Shown here in pieces: positions 34,193 through 58,169 of a DNA stretch of 64,000 nucleotides. The stretch is from NCBI GenBank assembly GCA_965200265.1, contig OZ241357.1, forward strand, positions 2,519,816 to 2,583,815. The letters run 5' to 3'. The notes under the pieces are model-generated. The model was not told the origin of the DNA and made no database searches. It saw only the letters and a list, made by a program, of their open reading frames with translations. Every line of letters starts with the position of its first letter. The first letter of the stretch is position 1. The stretch comes from Alphaproteobacteria bacterium. GTDB lineage: Bacteria; Pseudomonadota; Alphaproteobacteria; UBA2966. A program made the position numbers and the translations under genes.

Positions 34193-34230
34193 CCACGCCG
34201 GAACCCGCGGAGAACGGCAGGCATGATAGG

Positions 34231-35355
34231 ATGGACATGACGGAAGAACTGAAAATGTGGACGGTCGGGAACGGTGGCGAGGCCGCTCCGGTGAAGCAAG
34301 TGAGGCACATCGAAACCGAAAACCTGCTAGAAAAGACGCTCGTCAAGAACCCGGACATGCTGATACCGGGGTTGAAACTCGTGGGGCGACAGACGCCGAC
34401 CGACGGAGGCTGGCTCGACCTGCTGGGCGTGGACCGGGATGGCCGGCTCGTCGTATTCGAATTGAAACGCGGCAAGCTCACGCGGGAGGCGGTCACCCAG
34501 ATCATCGACTACGCCTCGGACCTCAATGCCATGAACGACAAACAACTGGCGGAGCACATCACCCAACGGTCGGGCCGCGACGGCATAGAGAAGATCGAGA
34601 ATTTCGACGACTGGTACGAAGACTGGCGCGCCCAACATATCGAGGAACCCGACGAGGCGCCTCAGTTACGGCCCGTGAAGATGATGCTTGTCGGTCTCGG
34701 CGCCGATGCCCGAGCTACCCGGATGGTGGACTTCCTGGCGCGGGGCGTGGACATATCGCTTCTGACGTTCCACGGCTACGAACATGAAGGCAAAACCTTT
34801 CTCGCCAGGCAAGTACAGGCGGAGCCGGACCTGACCGAAGAGTTCCGCGGCGGGAAGGAGAGCCGCGAAGAGCGCCGTCGAAAGCGCCGTCGCGCCGTTG
34901 AGGAATTGGCCGAAAATCATGGTGTAAGCGATATATTCAACGAGGCGGTCAGAAGATTCTTGGACTTGGATAGTCGTTATACGCCGCACACTCGTAGGGA
35001 CGGGTATGCTTTCTACGCGGCGCGGTCGTTGACGCTCTCCGGACACGATACAAAATTCAACAGCCCACTGTCGTTGAGGATTACCCGGAACGGAGAGATG
35101 CGCGTGACCTTCTTCCCGGTCTCGGTACATCTCTGCAAGCAGAAATTCCGGGAGGCGACACAATCCAATCCATCCCTGTTCAAATGCGAGCCTCCACCCA
35201 ATGCCCCTCGCACGAACGACGTCCCGGAGCAGTGGTACTGCGTCCTGGATCGGTCGGGATGGGATGAGCACAAGGAAAGACTGTTCGAGCTCGCCAAGGA
35301 CGTCTCCACGGCATGGAACAAGACCGAGCAAGAGGCCGGATCACGGGCGGCGTAA
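34231..35355 (+). CDS. NucS/DUF91-like PD-(D/E)xK nuclease-domain protein with uncharacterised C-terminal region
   Basis: GGWLDLLGVDRDGRLVVFELKRGKLTREAVTQIIDYASDL matches the D...(E)LK core of NucS/EndoMS-type nucleases; remaining about 250 aa unassigned. Confidence 0.65.
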   Translation: MDMTEELKMWTVGNGGEAAPVKQVRHIETENLLEKTLVKNPDMLIPGLKLVGRQTPTDGGWLDLLGVDRDGRLVVFELKRGKLTREAVTQIIDYASDLNAMNDKQLAEHITQRSGRDGIEKIENFDDWYEDWRAQHIEEPDEAPQLRPVKMMLVGLGADARATRMVDFLARGVDISLLTFHGYEHEGKTFLARQVQAEPDLTEEFRGGKESREERRRKRRRAVEELAENHGVSDIFNEAVRRFLDLDSRYTPHTRRDGYAFYAARSLTLSGHDTKFNSPLSLRITRNGEMRVTFFPVSVHLCKQKFREATQSNPSLFKCEPPPNAPRTNDVPEQWYCVLDRSGWDEHKERLFELAKDVSTAWNKTEQEAGSRAA

Positions 35356-52837: not shown

Positions 52838-53683
52838 ATGAGCGGAAACGGCGATCGCTTTCTGGAGGGGCGCGCGGCGATGGTCACGGGCGGCGCCTCG
52901 GGAATGGGCCGGGCCATGGCGCTCGCCTTCGCGGGAGCCGGCGCCGACGTCGCCATCGGCTCGCTGCTGTCGGATCGCTCCGGGACCGTGGCCGAGGGGG
53001 AGATCGCCCATCTCCCGGGACGAGGCGAGCTCGACGCCGCGGCCAAGGAGATCGAGTCCTGCGGCGCGCGGGCGCTGGCGATGGGACTCGACGTGACGTC
53101 GATGGAGTCCGTCGAGGCGTTCTTCGACGCGACCGTCGAGGCCTTCGGCAAGGTCGACGTCCTGGCCAACGCCGCCGGCATCACGGCCGAGCAGACCATC
53201 GTCGGCCACGCCGACGCCCTGTGGGAGAAGGTGCTCGACGTCAACCTCAACGGCGCCTACCGCGCCATCAAGCTCTCCCTGCCCGGAATGATCGAGCGGG
53301 GGTGGGGCCGCATCGTCAACATCGCCTCGACGGCGGCCTCCGTCGGCGCGCCCACGTCGGGGGCCTACTGCGCCTCCAAGGCCGGTGTCGTGGGCCTGAG
53401 CCGCTGCGTCGCCCTCGAAGGCGCGGCCCACGGCGTGACCTGCAACACCATCAGCCCCACCTGGGTCGAGACCGGCTTCGGCAAGGACTGGATGAGCGAC
53501 ATCGCCGAAACCCAGGAGGACCGCCCGGGTGAGGCGTACATCGCCGACGTCAAGGCCACCAACCCGCAGGGGCGCCTCGTCCAGCCCTCGGAGGTCGGTG
53601 CGCTCGCGCTCTATCTCTGCCGCGAGGAAGCCGCCGGCGTCACCATGCAGGACCTGACGATCTCGGCCGGGTCTCTGTGGTGA
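52838..53683 (+). CDS. SDR-family oxidoreductase (3-oxoacyl-ACP-reductase-like)
   Basis: TGGASGMGRAMA, NAAG, S..YxxxK (YCASKAGV); RBS GAGGAG upstream. Confidence 0.8.
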   Translation: MSGNGDRFLEGRAAMVTGGASGMGRAMALAFAGAGADVAIGSLLSDRSGTVAEGEIAHLPGRGELDAAAKEIESCGARALAMGLDVTSMESVEAFFDATVEAFGKVDVLANAAGITAEQTIVGHADALWEKVLDVNLNGAYRAIKLSLPGMIERGWGRIVNIASTAASVGAPTSGAYCASKAGVVGLSRCVALEGAAHGVTCNTISPTWVETGFGKDWMSDIAETQEDRPGEAYIADVKATNPQGRLVQPSEVGALALYLCREEAAGVTMQDLTISAGSLW

Positions 53684-54002
53684 CCCTTCGGGTCATCTTC
53701 GGCGCCAAGGAGGATTTCTTCATCAAGGCTGTCATGGCCTACACCAAATTTGGCCTTGAATAGCAAAGCCAATTCGTGTCTACTTGTGACGCATTCGGAT
53801 TCACATGAGGGTCGAGAACACGCATAGGGGGTAATTCGTGCTTCCGGTTGCCCAAGGCTACACACCTAACCGTGGTTTCCTTGCCGATTTCCCTGATGTA
53901 GGCTTTTTCTCGATGTCCCCACGTTCGATGAGAAGAAACGAGCCGTTGATCCCTCTCTTGCTCAACGCTACACTACACTGACCCGTACCGAAGGAACCAC
54001 CC

Positions 54003-54431
54003 ATGAACCCGAGAAAAATCTTTATCGCATGCGTCACCACAGCCATATTGACCGGCTGTGCATCACTAGATAAACTAAATTTGTCACTCGGTCCATTTCC
54101 GACTGATTACAAAACAACCATCAAGAAAGAGGTCTTGCGTGGCTTCTTTGATCCTTATTCGATTCGAGATGCTTCGATATCTGCGCCTATACGGTCCCGC
54201 ATAGTCGAACCTAAAGGGTGGCTTGTTTGCCTTGAGGTAAACGCCAAGAACAGGATGGGTGGTTACACTGGACTATCCCGCACCGCCTACTATATCCGGC
54301 TTGGCGGGCAGGTAATCGGAATCGAGGACGGTGATTCCGGAAACTGGACTTGCTCCGGTCAAACAATCAGTGGGATGAGGACGTTGACTTATTCGTTGTG
54401 GCCAGAGCTTGAACAGCTTCAACATCAATAG
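54003..54431 (+). CDS. Lipoprotein, function unknown (low-GC islet)
   Basis: Signal peptide + lipobox (ILTGCAS); lies in a distinctly AT-richer segment. Confidence 0.55.
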   Translation: MNPRKIFIACVTTAILTGCASLDKLNLSLGPFPTDYKTTIKKEVLRGFFDPYSIRDASISAPIRSRIVEPKGWLVCLEVNAKNRMGGYTGLSRTAYYIRLGGQVIGIEDGDSGNWTCSGQTISGMRTLTYSLWPELEQLQHQ

Positions 54432-54457
54432 CATCCACTCCCGGTCCCTTCTACCGC

Positions 54458-54730
54458 TCATACGTGGAATTTGTAACGAATTGTCAGAGATGCTCCTCTT
54501 TTCCCTTTCGGTTGGTGAATGATGTCATCTCTATCCTCTTTGTACTCCTGCCACATGACATTCGCACATGAGGGCATGTTCGCAGCGCGCTCTCCACGTT
54601 TGGGTGGGTAACCACCAAGTTTCCGGTAAAGCTCACCAGCATTTATCTCAGCATGTGGGCGACCCTGCTGTTGGGCGCGTTTGATCTGTGCTCGAAGTTC
54701 TTCTCGAAACTCGTCTGTGGTTGGCGGCAT
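54458..54730 (-). CDS. Hypothetical small basic protein (low-GC islet)
   Basis: 90 aa, Lys/Arg-rich, non-repetitive composition (...EINAGELYRKLGGYPPKRGERAANMPSCANVMWQEY...); no family assigned. Confidence 0.4.
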   Translation of the reverse strand: MPPTTDEFREELRAQIKRAQQQGRPHAEINAGELYRKLGGYPPKRGERAANMPSCANVMWQEYKEDRDDIIHQPKGKRGASLTIRYKFHV

Positions 54731-55043
54731 CAGGAATTCACCTTACAAGACCTGGGGATACGATGTCGGCAGTTGGTTTCAGTGCGGCTTCCGTACCGAT
54801 CCGGTGTTCAGGCCCCTCGTTCGACTCTTGGTCCAGTAACCTTGAAGCACCTTGTGCCGAATGCTCCCTGTCATGGTTGCAGAGTGGCGGGCCGCGGCGC
54901 ATTTGTCAAACACTGCCTTACAGATGCCGGGAACATCGCCGCGCGCCGGACCTCCGGTCTCGCGAGGACCCCGCCGCTGATGACCAGCCCGGTGTCTTCC
55001 GCGGCCGAACACCCCTATCGTATGAAATCAGCTCTTCCTTCTG

Positions 55044-55442
55044 TTGTCAGATGCTGATAACCTTGTGGCGGTAACCACACCCGACCGCGATCCCGGGCTG
55101 GACACCCTGCTGGACCTTCACGGCCAGACCCTGTTCGTGGATGAGGTCGGACATTGGGTGAAGTTTGTCGTGCTGCGAACCGATGTGACTCCGGAACGTC
55201 CGCACGGACTCAGCTATTCGCTGACACTGCACGCACCGGACGGCACCAGGTTGGTCGGGTTCGACAACGCGCACCCGGTGAGGGAGCGGCGAGGTCCGGG
55301 AATGCGGAAACGCATGAAGAGCGACCACAAGCACCGGATTCGGACAGTCCGGCCCTATGATTACGAAGACGCCGCCACGCTTCTTGAGGATTTCTGGACC
55401 GAGGTAGATCGGATTCTGAAGGAAGGAGAGTCGATTCCATGA
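55044..55442 (+). CDS. TumE-like toxin-family protein (DUF6516-like)
   Basis: FDNAHP...H.H pattern (GFDNAHPVRERRGPGMRKRMKSDHKHRIR) and 4-nt overlap with a downstream HTH gene, as in TumE/TumA-type pairs. Confidence 0.55.
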   Translation: MSDADNLVAVTTPDRDPGLDTLLDLHGQTLFVDEVGHWVKFVVLRTDVTPERPHGLSYSLTLHAPDGTRLVGFDNAHPVRERRGPGMRKRMKSDHKHRIRTVRPYDYEDAATLLEDFWTEVDRILKEGESIP

Positions 55443-55819
55443 GGACGTTGAAGATCGGTATTGCCGACTATGATCGGATGAAGGCGCGCACCATGGAGAT
55501 CGCGCACGGCGAACGCAAGCCGGCCAAGGGCGAGCCGATGGTATGGTTCACGTCGGTCGAGAGCTTCGCGAAGGTGCTCTCCCGGCGCAATCAGGAACTT
55601 CTGGCGTTGATCGCCCGCGAGAAGCCGCGGTCGCTCACCGAGCTGGCGGAACTCGCGGGGCGGAACAAGTCGAACCTGTCGCGCACCCTGAAGACGATGT
55701 CGCGGTATGGCCTCGTGGAATTGACGGAAGGACGACGTGGCATGTTGGTCCCGCGGGTCCGGTACGACCGGGTGAGGCTGGACGTTTCGTTGACGCCGCT
55801 CCCGCACCAAGTCGCGTGA
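55439..55819 (+). CDS. HTH DNA-binding protein (HVO_A0114/MarR-like), putative antitoxin partner
   Basis: Winged-helix segment ELLALIAREKPRSLTELAELAGRNKSNLSRTLKTMSRYGLVEL; ATGA overlap with the preceding gene. Confidence 0.55.
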   Translation: MRTLKIGIADYDRMKARTMEIAHGERKPAKGEPMVWFTSVESFAKVLSRRNQELLALIAREKPRSLTELAELAGRNKSNLSRTLKTMSRYGLVELTEGRRGMLVPRVRYDRVRLDVSLTPLPHQVA

Positions 55820-55891
55820 AGCGGCCGGAATCGACGGGCGCGGACGGTCCGGAGAGACCGCCATGCCCCGGCGACCCGTATGTGAACGCCC

Positions 55892-56755
55892 CTACCGCTC
55901 GCTCTCCAGCGAAGCGATGCGCAACAGGCCCTCCCGGGCGAGCGCGACCGTGTCCGGGTCGGCGGGATCCGAGGAATGCATCATGTAGGCCGGCCGCTTG
56001 AAGGTCGGGGCGCCGGTCACGCGGTATAGCCGCCTCTCCGCCAGATAGGGCCGCACGACCCGCAGGGGGAAGTACCCCGCCCCGCCGTTGTCGAGGATGT
56101 ATTGCAACCCGATGGCGCCGAGACCGACGGAGACCGCCGAAACCTCGATCTCGGGGAACGCCTTGACGAGTTCCGCGCGGTAGTCGGCGCCCCAGTCCAC
56201 GTAGATGTAGTCATCCATCCAACCGGAACGGATCTTGCGCTTGCGGGTCGACACCATCACGAGCCGCTCCTCCAGGAGGGTCTCGACGACGAACCCCGAC
56301 ATCGTGCGCGGATAATAGAGGACGACGAGGTCGAGCAGACCGTCGGACAGCTGCCGCATCAGGCTGGGCGAATAATCCGTCTCCACGTGAAGCGCGACGT
56401 CCGGCGCCTGGGCCCGCATCCACGGCAGCCATCGCGCCACCAGCCGTTCCCACAGGCTCACCTGGGTGCCGAGGCCGAACAGAGCCCGGTAACCCTCGGG
56501 CAGAGCGACCTGTTGCCGGCCCCGCTCCCAGCCCTGGACCACGGACGCGGCGTATCGTTCGAAGCGCCGGCCGGCGCCGGTCAACTCGACCCCTGACCGG
56601 CCGCGCCGGAACAGCTGGCGATCGAGTCGGTCCTCCAGCCCCCTGATCCGCGCGCTGACCGTCGACTGGCTGACGTTCAGATTGTCGGCAGCCTGGTTGA
56701 AGTTTCCCGTCGCGGCGATTTCGAGAAAGGTCCGCAACTGCTCGATGTTCGCCAT
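55892..56755 (-). CDS. LysR-family transcriptional regulator
   Basis: N-terminal HTH IEQLRTFLEIAATGNFNQAADNLNVSQSTVSARIRGLE, C-terminal substrate-binding domain; divergent from the GBBH-like gene. Confidence 0.85.
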   Translation of the reverse strand: MANIEQLRTFLEIAATGNFNQAADNLNVSQSTVSARIRGLEDRLDRQLFRRGRSGVELTGAGRRFERYAASVVQGWERGRQQVALPEGYRALFGLGTQVSLWERLVARWLPWMRAQAPDVALHVETDYSPSLMRQLSDGLLDLVVLYYPRTMSGFVVETLLEERLVMVSTRKRKIRSGWMDDYIYVDWGADYRAELVKAFPEIEVSAVSVGLGAIGLQYILDNGGAGYFPLRVVRPYLAERRLYRVTGAPTFKRPAYMMHSSDPADPDTVALAREGLLRIASLESER

Positions 56756-56903: not shown

Positions 56904-58169
56904 ATGCGGTCGCCGGTAGTATTGGCCGAGCGAATACTTGGCGGAGCGGTGCGTATCCCCCGCGGCGGTCCCGCTCGGGCGCACTCCGTTCCGCCGCCGG
57001 CCGCGCCCGCCGGCCTTTCCCCTGGACCGTCCGCGAAGGAGGTCGGATCGGTCCGCGTCGTCGGTCGATCCCTCGAAGTGACCTGGAACGACGGGCGGTC
57101 CTACGCCTTCCCCCTGATCTGGTTGCGGGACAACTGCGGTTGTCCGCGCTGCCTGCACCCGGATACGCGAGAGCGGACGTTCGATCTCCTGACCGTTCCG
57201 GAGACGCCGCGTGTGGCCAGCGCCGGACTCACAGGCCGGGGCGCGGTAATGGTGTTGTGGGGCGACGACGGCCACACCAGCAAGTACGAGCAGGACTGGT
57301 TGCGCCGGTACGCCTTCGAACCGTCCGGCGACGAGCCCGCTCGGCCCGACGTCGTGCTCTGGGACGCCAGCCTGTCCGGCCGCGTGCCCCGGTTCGACTA
57401 CGGCGACGTCATGGAAAGCGGGCAAGGCCTCGAGGCCTGGCTCTCCGCACTGCTGGAACACGGCATCGCGGTCATCGCCGACACGCCGCGTCGCGACCGG
57501 GAGGTCGTCCGGGTGGCCGAGCGAGTCGCCTACGCGCGACGCTCCAACTTCGGAGAACATTTCGAGGTCCGGGCCGAACCCAACCCGGTCAACAACGCCT
57601 ACACGGCGCTCAAGCTCCCCAACCACACGGATCTCTGCAATTGGGAGCGTTCTCCGGGTTACCAATTCCTCCATTGTCTGGAGAACACCGCGACCGGCGG
57701 AGACTCCACCCTGGTCGACGGATTCCGCGTCGCCGAGGCACTGCGTCACGCGGATGCCGAGGCCTTTCGCGTGCTGTCGACCACGCCGGTGCTGTTCCGT
57801 TTCCACGACACCGAATGCGACCTGCGGTTCCACGCCCCGATCATCGGACTGGACGACTCCGGGCGCTTCGAACGGATCCGCTTCAACTTCGGGCTCTTCG
57901 GCGTTCAGGTTCTGCCGCCCGACGAGACCATGGCGCTCTACGCGGCCTACCGCAAATTCGCCCGGCTCGTTCGCGACGACCGCTACCAGATCCGCTTCAG
58001 GCTCCGGCCGGGGGATCTGCTCACCTTCGACAACTGGCGGGTGCTGCACGGACGTCTGGCGTACCAGCCGTCGACCGGCAAACGGCACCTGCAGGGATGC
58101 TACGTGGACCGGGACGAGGTGTTGAGCCGCCTGCGCATGTCCGCCTCGGCCGTCACCAACGCCGCCTGA
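56904..58169 (+). CDS. Gamma-butyrobetaine-hydroxylase-like Fe(II)/2-oxoglutarate dioxygenase (TauD/TfdA fold with N-terminal DUF971 zinc domain)
   Basis: DUF971 zinc motif WLRDNCGCPRCLHP; HxD...H facial triad (HTDLCN ... RVLHGR); start is low confidence. Confidence 0.75.
   Translation: MRSPVVLAERILGGAVRIPRGGPARAHSVPPPAAPAGLSPGPSAKEVGSVRVVGRSLEVTWNDGRSYAFPLIWLRDNCGCPRCLHPDTRERTFDLLTVPETPRVASAGLTGRGAVMVLWGDDGHTSKYEQDWLRRYAFEPSGDEPARPDVVLWDASLSGRVPRFDYGDVMESGQGLEAWLSALLEHGIAVIADTPRRDREVVRVAERVAYARRSNFGEHFEVRAEPNPVNNAYTALKLPNHTDLCNWERSPGYQFLHCLENTATGGDSTLVDGFRVAEALRHADAEAFRVLSTTPVLFRFHDTECDLRFHAPIIGLDDSGRFERIRFNFGLFGVQVLPPDETMALYAAYRKFARLVRDDRYQIRFRLRPGDLLTFDNWRVLHGRLAYQPSTGKRHLQGCYVDRDEVLSRLRMSASAVTNAA

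Follow-up and report, generated by a model that had tools for sequence, protein, structure and literature searches.

The 64-kb stretch of alphaproteobacterial DNA analysed here (contig OZ241357.1; hereafter, the window) carries an islet of low G+C content (GC) at positions 53684-55830, between the genes for an SDR-family oxidoreductase and a LysR-family regulator. The islet encodes a predicted lipoprotein, a small basic protein (orf90), a putative toxin of the TumE (DUF6516) family, and a helix-turn-helix (HTH) protein of the HVO_A0114 type. We found that it is the result of two separate acquisitions and not of one. Most probably it is a nested mosaic, in which an older tumE-HTH cassette, which we read as a toxin-first type II toxin-antitoxin module, was followed by a recent, strain-level segment with the lipoprotein and orf90 genes.

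The islet consists of two DNA classes

The GC of the 64-kb window is 68.3%, with a standard deviation of 4.6 points in 300-bp windows. Its lowest value (0.473, at 53951) falls in the islet, within a run below 0.58 that extends from 53601 to 54900. The original prediction, made from the sequence alone, had described a low-GC islet with four open reading frames (ORFs) and a non-coding stretch of about 320 bp. Our ORF check recovered the same four ORFs, and the ~319 bp at 53684-54002 contain no credible one. The low GC was likewise borne out. The islet is not uniform in composition: 53684-54760 has a GC of 50% and 54761-55830 of 62%. The GC at third codon positions (GC3) is 0.51 for the lipoprotein gene, 0.45 for orf90, 0.68 for tumE, and 0.85 for the HTH gene, as compared to 0.85-0.94 for the flanking genes. 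All four genes are under purifying selection, with ratios of nonsynonymous to synonymous divergence (dN/dS) of 0.07-0.44.

Close relatives reveal the order of events

We compared the window with its closest relatives (L001-L003, ~97% nucleotide identity), using three complete chromosomes of metagenome-assembled genomes (L010, L011, and L012) as outgroups. In L001-L003, the gene order is Aldedh-SDR-TumE-HTH-LysR-GBBH-like-ABC; the lipoprotein and orf90 genes are absent, and the distance from SDR to TumE is only ~215 bp. As shown by blastn, the ~97% identity continues through position 53684 of the window, one base beyond the SDR stop codon, and resumes at 55016. Thus, the 1,331 bp at 53685-55015 sit where these relatives have 163 bp, and we found no similarity between this spacer and the longer segment. 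L015, a 1,151-bp metagenome contig from a sister run, reproduces the SDR/low-GC junction of the window at 98%, indicating that both alleles exist among near-identical strains. Because ~106 bp of the L001 spacer are common to L011, the 163-bp spacer represents the ancestral state, and the derived one is the 1,331-bp segment of the window.

The tumE-HTH cassette has a longer history at this site. The synonymous divergence (dS) between the window and L001 is 0.10 for both tumE and the HTH gene, 0.067 for SDR, and 0.090 for lysR. The match between cassette and flanks indicates that the cassette has been inherited vertically since the split from L001. In L012, whose flanks are ~86% identical to those of the window, the SDR and LysR stop codons lie ~100 bp apart without a cassette. 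The 78-100-bp spacer of this genome holds no cassette remnant, and its homology, in blastn searches with both the window and L001, resumes at ~55861-55882 of the window. L011 (~93%) has kept the HTH gene (91% amino acid identity), while its tumE is replaced by 669 bp of 59% GC with an unrelated ORF of 218 amino acids (aa), and homology restarts 7 nt before the HTH ATG. L010 is rearranged, with an N-terminal fragment of a DUF4096 IS4/IS5 transposase abutting the 3′ end of LysR, which itself is 90-93% identical in protein sequence across L010-L012. In total, we count five states of the convergent SDR/LysR gap in this small group of relatives, L010 being the fifth.

Two of these outgroup loci have further features. 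The 218-aa ORF of L011 (7740-8396 of OZ251449.1) precedes the retained HTH gene by 36 nt and gave no match in Pfam, NCBIfam, or PADLOC; judged by eye only, its AAHGDEDG and LGTCA motifs resemble a His/Cys catalytic pair. The DUF4096 fragment of L010 (8836-9126 of OY282368.1) scored 29.9 bits, which is below the gathering score, and on its upstream side this genome carries an acyl-CoA synthetase gene instead of betB-SDR.

The original prediction had explained the entire islet, 53684-55830, as one horizontally inserted fragment, in which the toxin-antitoxin pair stabilizes a cargo of the lipoprotein and orf90 genes. Such a reading accounts for four contiguous genes that lie between genes of host composition and are all below host GC. 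It does not account for the closest relatives, which carry the pair at the identical site without the cargo, or for the ancestral spacer common to L001 and L011. Moreover, the two halves are ~12 points apart in GC and also distinct in GC3, the pair has diverged in step with its flanks, the cargo module is found elsewhere without TumE, and the strain-specific low-GC piece comprises 53685-55015 only. We find a single acquisition barely credible. What did hold from the prediction is the foreign origin of the islet DNA, which is not universally conserved in the lineage, and its position, since it separates betB-SDR from the LysR, GBBH-like, and ABC-transporter genes that are adjacent in L012.

A different objection concerns the older event. 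The cassette might be ancestral to the whole clade, in which case the empty site of L012 and the rearrangement of L010 would be secondary losses; L012 is the only clean empty-site genome, and L010 is uninformative. However, the GC3 of tumE is well under that of host genes, the cassette is clearly mobile between bacterial classes, and the L012 spacer retains nothing of it. An ancestral cassette thus appears quite improbable.

With regard to mechanism, searches for flanking or terminal direct or inverted repeats of the islet returned none that were convincing, in agreement with the earlier inspection by eye. The combined ORF and Pfam check identified no recombinase ORF (integrase or transposase) in 53684-55830, and no tRNA or Rfam family was found around the islet. 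Consensus scans for promoters and terminators around the islet gave nothing beyond chance, and when 10 kb were compared with plasmids by megablast, no close replicon emerged and the similarity was confined to ABC transporters. The islet resembles classical genomic islands in its foreign composition, its patchy presence among close relatives, and its cargo of unknown function. It differs from them in lacking an integrase, a tRNA target, and direct or terminal inverted repeats, and the recent event furthermore exchanged 163 bp for 1,331 bp and was not a clean insertion.

The older cassette encodes a TumE protein followed by a winged-helix partner

The TumE-TumA superfamily was defined by Durairaj et al. 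(Nature 2023, PMC10584680). In that work, six gammaproteobacterial toxins of subcluster 1a arrested the growth of Escherichia coli and were neutralized by small, mostly upstream-encoded partners. One TumE lowered 35S-methionine incorporation, i.e., inhibited translation, and RNase activity was described as "yet unproven". The fold was reported as alpha+beta, with two helices on a seven-stranded antiparallel sheet and without a PDB match; the validated TumA constructs were 289-388 bp long including flanks, and the antitoxins were RelB-like or hypothetical (PMC10584680).

The original assignment of the third islet gene to TumE/DUF6516 was confirmed by Pfam PF20126, with 34.1 bits against a gathering score of 23.4 (E 2.9e-8, profile positions 7-80 of 81). 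Neither NCBIfam nor PADLOC has a model matching this protein. A search of 5.8 billion proteins yielded 2,445 relatives; the best 120 homologues are 75-95% identical and 122-125 aa long, and nearly all have a precomputed PF20126 match. Given this length, the GTG at 55065 is more likely to be the tumE start than the TTG at 55044. An exact-protein look-up with the 132-aa version found no match because that start codon is wrong for the collection. The FDNAHP...H.H pattern noticed in the original prediction also stood, as FDNAH...DH.HR belongs to the residues conserved in at least 95% of 54 distinct TumE sequences: PHG46-48, YSLTLH51-56, RLVGFDNAH62-70, D87, H88, H90, R91, and DFW109-111. The window protein retains every one of them. 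Its AlphaFold2 model (pLDDT 71, pTM 0.65) has an N-terminal helix (10-18), a long C-terminal helix (103-120), and four to five called strands; a basic loop at 72-89, with pLDDT below 50, leads into DH.HR. Fold and sequence-profile searches against PDB gave no significant match, all fold matches having E >0.4.

The protein encoded by the next gene matched PF25212 (HVO_A0114) over residues 32-112 with 77.1 bits against a gathering score of 27.6, which supports the winged-helix assignment made earlier. HTH_20, IclR, and MarR_2 also matched above their cutoffs, overlapping the PF25212 span, and phrog_11214 matched over the full length (5e-26). The protein has a conserved N-terminal extension of 45 residues. 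A literature search for HVO_A0114 returned no papers. The reported 4-nt overlap of the two genes is present as ATGA at 55439-55442.

We surveyed 85 tumE loci and found the HTH gene directly 3′ of tumE in 81, overlapping by 4 nt in 59 and by 1 nt in 19; three of the four exceptions are contig ends. The unit common to unrelated genomes (L004-L009) corresponds to 55028-55820 of the window at 82% nucleotide identity, and in these genomes it is located in toxin-antitoxin-dense islands beside AdoHcyase. Relatives at 42-70% amino acid identity were found on plasmids of Enterobacter, Klebsiella, Brevundimonas, Sinorhizobium, Cupriavidus, and others. Overall, the carriers are toxin-antitoxin-rich islands and plasmids of Alpha-, Beta-, and Gammaproteobacteria.

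The L004-L009 islands (e.g., L004 7600-12600) also contain CopG/BrnA-like, FitA-RHH/PIN, HigB/HTH, SocA_Panacea, RES, and MqsA-like genes, with insertion sequence (IS) elements and a P4-type integrase nearby. We considered the CopG gene upstream of tumE in these genomes as the true antitoxin and rejected it, as it is not part of the conserved cassette, whose homology begins 43 nt before tumE, and CopG is missing in the window, L001, and L008. On the IncR plasmid pCAV1668-85 of Enterobacter hormaechei (NZ_CP011583.1; L105 3678-6383), the pair is translationally coupled to a serine recombinase gene in a run of a 105-aa hypothetical protein, DUF6516, HTH, and serine recombinase, each overlapping the next by 4 nt. 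Two viral-classed contigs from IMG/VR, L103 (UViG_3300017651_000117) and L104 (UViG_3300010883_022069), carry TumE relatives of 67% and 54% identity, respectively.

By its sequence, the cassette would be a further member of the known TumE-TumA kind, in a toxin-first arrangement with a winged-helix partner. It shares with the superfamily the Pfam TumE match, the small size, a tentatively predicted alpha+beta fold, the bicistronic organization with a predicted DNA-binding partner, and a patchy, mobile distribution. It differs from the validated subcluster 1a pairs, as the putative toxin of the window comes first, its partner is a 126-aa HVO_A0114 winged-helix protein encoded downstream, and there is no upstream partner. 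By analogy with the validated pairs, we infer that the TumE protein is toxic and that the winged-helix protein neutralizes it.

HigBA, MqsRA, and HicAB are toxin-first type II systems with HTH antitoxins. The cassette resembles them in having a toxin gene followed by an antitoxin gene, overlapping frames, a DNA-binding antitoxin, and an expected autorepression through a promoter palindrome, all as predicted from sequence. In contrast to these systems, to which it has no sequence relationship, its toxin fold is without a PDB relative, and its putative antitoxin is a winged helix with a 45-residue N-terminal extension and not an Xre-type HTH protein.

The pair could also be a transcription factor with an accessory enzyme or sensor that regulates the neighboring catabolic genes. 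It does lie inside a catabolic locus beside LysR, and its HTH protein resembles MarR/IclR/ArsR-type regulators. However, the 82% identical cassette occurs in unrelated contexts, including the toxin-antitoxin islands by AdoHcyase and conjugative/IncR plasmids, and L012 has the same catabolic genes without it. In addition, the candidate operator stands in front of tumE itself, and the only copy of the palindrome in the window is this one, with none upstream of the catabolic genes. Such a regulatory role is very unlikely, and we retain the toxin-antitoxin reading.

A palindrome upstream of tumE is a candidate operator

When up to three mismatches are allowed, the family consensus GTTATCA-N5-TGATAAC stands upstream of tumE in 65 of the 83 loci that could be tested; 33 of these copies are perfect. 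Outside these positions, only 7 other matches were present in 360 kb of locus sequence. The 64-kb window has exactly one match, as compared to 0 in 100 shuffles. Alignment of 55 unique loci showed that the palindrome arms are the most conserved non-coding positions, and the 5-nt spacer is unconstrained. One subgroup has the symmetric variant CCTATCA-N5-TGATAGG, which covaries with K77G and R89S in the HTH protein; this covariation is suggestive only. Both viral-classed contigs, L103 and L104, have the palindrome upstream of their TumE relatives, and in L105 it was absent within three mismatches.

The palindrome is embedded in a promoter-like arrangement. A -35-like element (TTGca/TTGac) ends 3-4 nt upstream of it, and its right arm reads as an extended -10 (TG-a-TAACnT). 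In most loci, tumE starts at +27/+28, only 8-9 nt past the palindrome, which leaves no room for a Shine-Dalgarno sequence. Thus, the tumE mRNA is probably leaderless. The overlap of the palindrome with the predicted -10 and the geometry of the start suggest an autorepressed, probably leaderless operon. The simplest reading of this layout would be autorepression by a winged-helix dimer occluding the promoter of its operon, and an mRNA with no leader or nearly none. Such an operator and leaderless geometry are undescribed in the account of the superfamily in PMC10584680.

The window itself deviates from this pattern. The canonical tumE ATG (55071-55073, +28) reads GTA in the window and ATA in L001 (~1980-2020). 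The remaining starts in both are the GTG at +22 (55065) and the TTG at +1 (55044), neither of which is preceded by a Shine-Dalgarno sequence. Together with the degenerate -35 and the altered operator base, the loss of the ATG in this lineage implies that toxin output may be reduced.

Toxin genes appear to decay before their partners

In some loci the toxin was lost and the partner kept. Apart from L011, this was found on pSymA of Sinorhizobium meliloti 1021. The tumE of this plasmid has a frameshift and in-frame stops; the HTH ORF is intact, as is a perfect copy of the palindrome, GTTATCAGTGTCTGATAAC. This TumE/HVO_A0114 cassette (NC_003037.1 ~1221128-1221878; L106 2470-3220) is unannotated, and split tumE matches were present on S. 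medicae plasmids as well. L051 (385-864) alone has tumE without an HTH gene; its TumE carries D87G in DH.HR and a rewritten C terminus, and a convergent 149-aa ORF occupies the HTH position. Loss of the toxin before the antitoxin would be what a toxin-antitoxin pair predicts, with the numbers being small.

The window cassette might itself be decayed or domesticated, in which case TumE would no longer be made in toxic amounts and the HTH protein would be an orphan regulator without a role in addiction or defense. Consistent with such decay are the missing +28 ATG in the window and L001, the TTCCTT at the -35 position, the mismatch in the left operator arm, the lack of a Shine-Dalgarno sequence before either alternative start, and the related loci in which the toxin is gone outright. 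On the other hand, the tumE ORF is intact with all of the at least 95% conserved residues, its dN/dS (0.18 against L001, 0.19 against L004) is no higher than that of the flanking genes, and several loci with a preserved canonical ATG have the in-frame GTG at +22 as well. On balance, we consider decay unlikely and favor a functional toxin-first module.

The recent segment carries a mobile lipoprotein-orf90 module

Within the recent segment, the convergent lipoprotein-orf90 core (53958-54745) is 81% identical in nucleotide sequence to L016 and 76% to L017 and L018. Elsewhere, the pair adjoins genes for resolvase, integrase, DDE and IS21/Mu transposases, reverse transcriptase, and other toxin-antitoxin systems, and it is found without TumE. 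At these other loci too, its GC is 8-12 points below that of the host contig. Downstream of the core, the only match to 54746-55015 was L015, whose contig ends after covering 60 nt; the orf90 promoter presumably lies in this part.

In the N-terminal sequence of the lipoprotein, MNPRKIFIACVTTAILTGC, the LTGC at residues 16-19 fits the lipobox [LVI][ASTVI][GAS]C by motif reading. The protein has 104 homologue clusters and evolves with a dN/dS of 0.24-0.38, and it gave no match in Pfam, NCBIfam, or PADLOC. A few phages of Klebsiella and Rhizobium, as well as plasmids, encode distant relatives annotated as "hypothetical". Its PHROG family, phrog_2320, is of unknown function, as is phrog_11214, the family matched by the HTH protein.

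The lipoproteins Llp of T5 and Cor of phi80 mediate superinfection exclusion. With its short signal peptide, lipobox, ~120 mature residues, and occurrence in mobile DNA and a few phages, the islet lipoprotein resembles small lipoproteins encoded by phages and plasmids (phrog_2320 family), for which Llp and Cor may serve as a functional analogy. It differs from the Llp/Cor type in showing no detectable homology to any characterized exclusion lipoprotein, so that the analogy is a guess only. A role of the module at the cell surface, in exclusion, or in a conflict system is likewise our guess.

The orf90 protein belongs to a much larger family. It has 14 close clusters, and a profile search retrieved 1,060 representative clusters at 50% identity. 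Nevertheless, it had no match in Pfam, NCBIfam, PADLOC, or, by sequence profile, PDB. In a fold search with its model (pLDDT 79), the best PDB match was the Smr domain (E 0.2, TM ~0.5), which is not significant. In proteins P0239-P0388, the domain is either stand-alone or fused to a Swt1-type HEPN domain, an ion channel, or DUF499; its other fusion partners are a PQQ propeller, Sel1 repeats, HEAT repeats, and a Ser/Thr kinase that carries TPR repeats. Across the wider family, H35, H50, C55, and C56 are near-invariant. The window copy has Y35, N50, and A56 and has thus lost three of the four, and its dN/dS is 0.07-0.19. The analysis of the islet brought to light an unannotated but widespread small domain.

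Surrounding genes and feature coordinates

Features of the islet and its borders are collected in Table 1. The original prediction had placed the islet in a carnitine locus. BetB passes its equivalog cutoff with 806 bits against 593. The GBBH-like/TauD dioxygenase (56904-58169, + strand) remains below the cutoffs for both gamma-butyrobetaine dioxygenase (371 against 415) and TmpA, the 2-trimethylaminoethylphosphonate dioxygenase (348 against 400), and a BKACE-like gene upstream in the locus is also below cutoff. Of the two enzymes, gamma-butyrobetaine dioxygenase is the closer to it and TmpA follows narrowly. As a name for the locus, "carnitine" is plausible, and "quaternary-amine catabolism" is the safe description.

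The window has a second low-GC patch at 34751-35300 (minimum 0.53), within an ORF at ~34230-35355 (+ strand). This ORF contains a NucS_C endonuclease-like domain (36.3 bits against a cutoff of 24) and is probably another accessory gene.

Table 1. Positions of the islet features and flanking genes in the 64-kb window
Feature	Position	Strand	Basis or remarks
SDR-family oxidoreductase gene	52838-53683	+	Left flank, host composition; Pfam adh_short/adh_short_C2; GC3 0.94
Strain-specific replacement segment, 1,331 bp	53685-55015		~50-60% GC; blastn breakpoints against L001/L002/L003
Left part of segment, non-coding, 273 bp	53685-53957		Among the sequences fetched, shared only with L015
Mobile core, convergent lipoprotein-orf90 module	53958-54745		Identity to L016-L018 over exactly this span
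Predicted lipoprotein, 142 aa	54003-54431	+	Lipobox LTGC, Cys19; phrog_2320 match 3e-17
orf90, small basic protein, 90 aa, pI 9.6	54458-54730	-	Undescribed domain of ~85 aa
Right part of segment, non-coding, 270 bp	54746-55015		~60% GC; first 60 nt covered by L015
Family -35 position, degenerate	55035-55040	+	TTCCTT against TTGca/TTGac; palindrome-anchored alignment of 55 unique loci
Candidate operator, inverted repeat GTTGTCA-GATGC-TGATAAC	55043-55061	+	One mismatch to family consensus GTTATCA-N5-TGATAAC
tumE (DUF6516), putative toxin, 125 aa	55065-55442	+	GTG start; ORF open from TTG 55044 (132 aa)
Shine-Dalgarno-like AAGGAG	55423-55428	+	10 nt before HTH ATG, read from sequence
HVO_A0114-type winged-helix protein, 126 aa, putative TumA antitoxin/autorepressor	55439-55819	+	ATGA overlap with tumE
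Right edge of older cassette insertion	55820-55881		L012 homology resumption; L004-L009 cassette homology ends at 55820
LysR-family regulator gene	55892-56755	-	Right flank, host composition, convergent with SDR; Pfam HTH_1 and LysR_substrate

Discussion

The host of this mosaic is an uncultured alphaproteobacterium, and the site is a quaternary-amine catabolic locus. We propose that, in an older event, a cassette of ~0.8 kb with promoter/operator, tumE, and the HVO_A0114-type gene entered the SDR/LysR gap, and that it has been inherited vertically since before the split from the 93-97% identical relatives. TumE may act as a growth-inhibiting effector, by analogy with tested relatives, which block translation and whose nuclease activity is unproven. 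The winged-helix protein would neutralize it and, as a dimer, bind the palindrome over the promoter spacer and extended -10 to repress its own operon. Its gene would be translationally coupled to tumE through the ATGA and have its own Shine-Dalgarno sequence. In a recent, strain-level event, 1,331 bp of lower-GC DNA then replaced the 163-bp spacer upstream of the cassette, bringing in the mobile convergent lipoprotein-orf90 module.

Several observations weigh against this proposal. The empty site of L012 could in principle be a deletion, and L012 is the single clean outgroup because L010 is rearranged. The window has no repeats, integrase, or transposase to account for the replacement of 163 bp by 1,331 bp. 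All six validated pairs are from gammaproteobacterial subcluster 1a, and none has an HVO_A0114 partner. The TumE model is only moderately confident, and there is no PDB relative to suggest a chemistry. The covariation between HTH protein and operator comes from four sequences of a single clade. Last, with GTA at the canonical ATG, a degenerate -35, and alternative starts without a Shine-Dalgarno sequence, tumE in the window may be poorly expressed.

A broader reading is possible, though we put it forward only tentatively. In its first part, the HVO_A0114 protein would be the TumA that represses a leaderless operon of a large TumE subfamily. If true, no cis-regulatory architecture would have been defined for the TumE superfamily before this one, and in lineages like that of the window, loss of the start codon and of the -35 would have weakened the toxin. 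In its second part, the lipoprotein-orf90 pair would be an unrecognized mobile module, and the orf90 domain could serve microbial conflict systems as a new type of sensor or adaptor.

For the host genome, the islet is of little consequence, being accessory DNA in a neutral convergent gap that leaves the catabolic genes uninterrupted; outside the cassette, the segment is ordinary strain-level accessory DNA. The locus demonstrates that several independent events can lie stacked within one compositional "islet", and that near-identical relatives allow us to resolve them to the base. The SDR/LysR gap, with its five states, is a natural system for studying the turnover of variable spots. For a large branch of the TumE family, the locus yields testable predictions regarding the partner, the operator, leaderless expression, and toxin-first loss.

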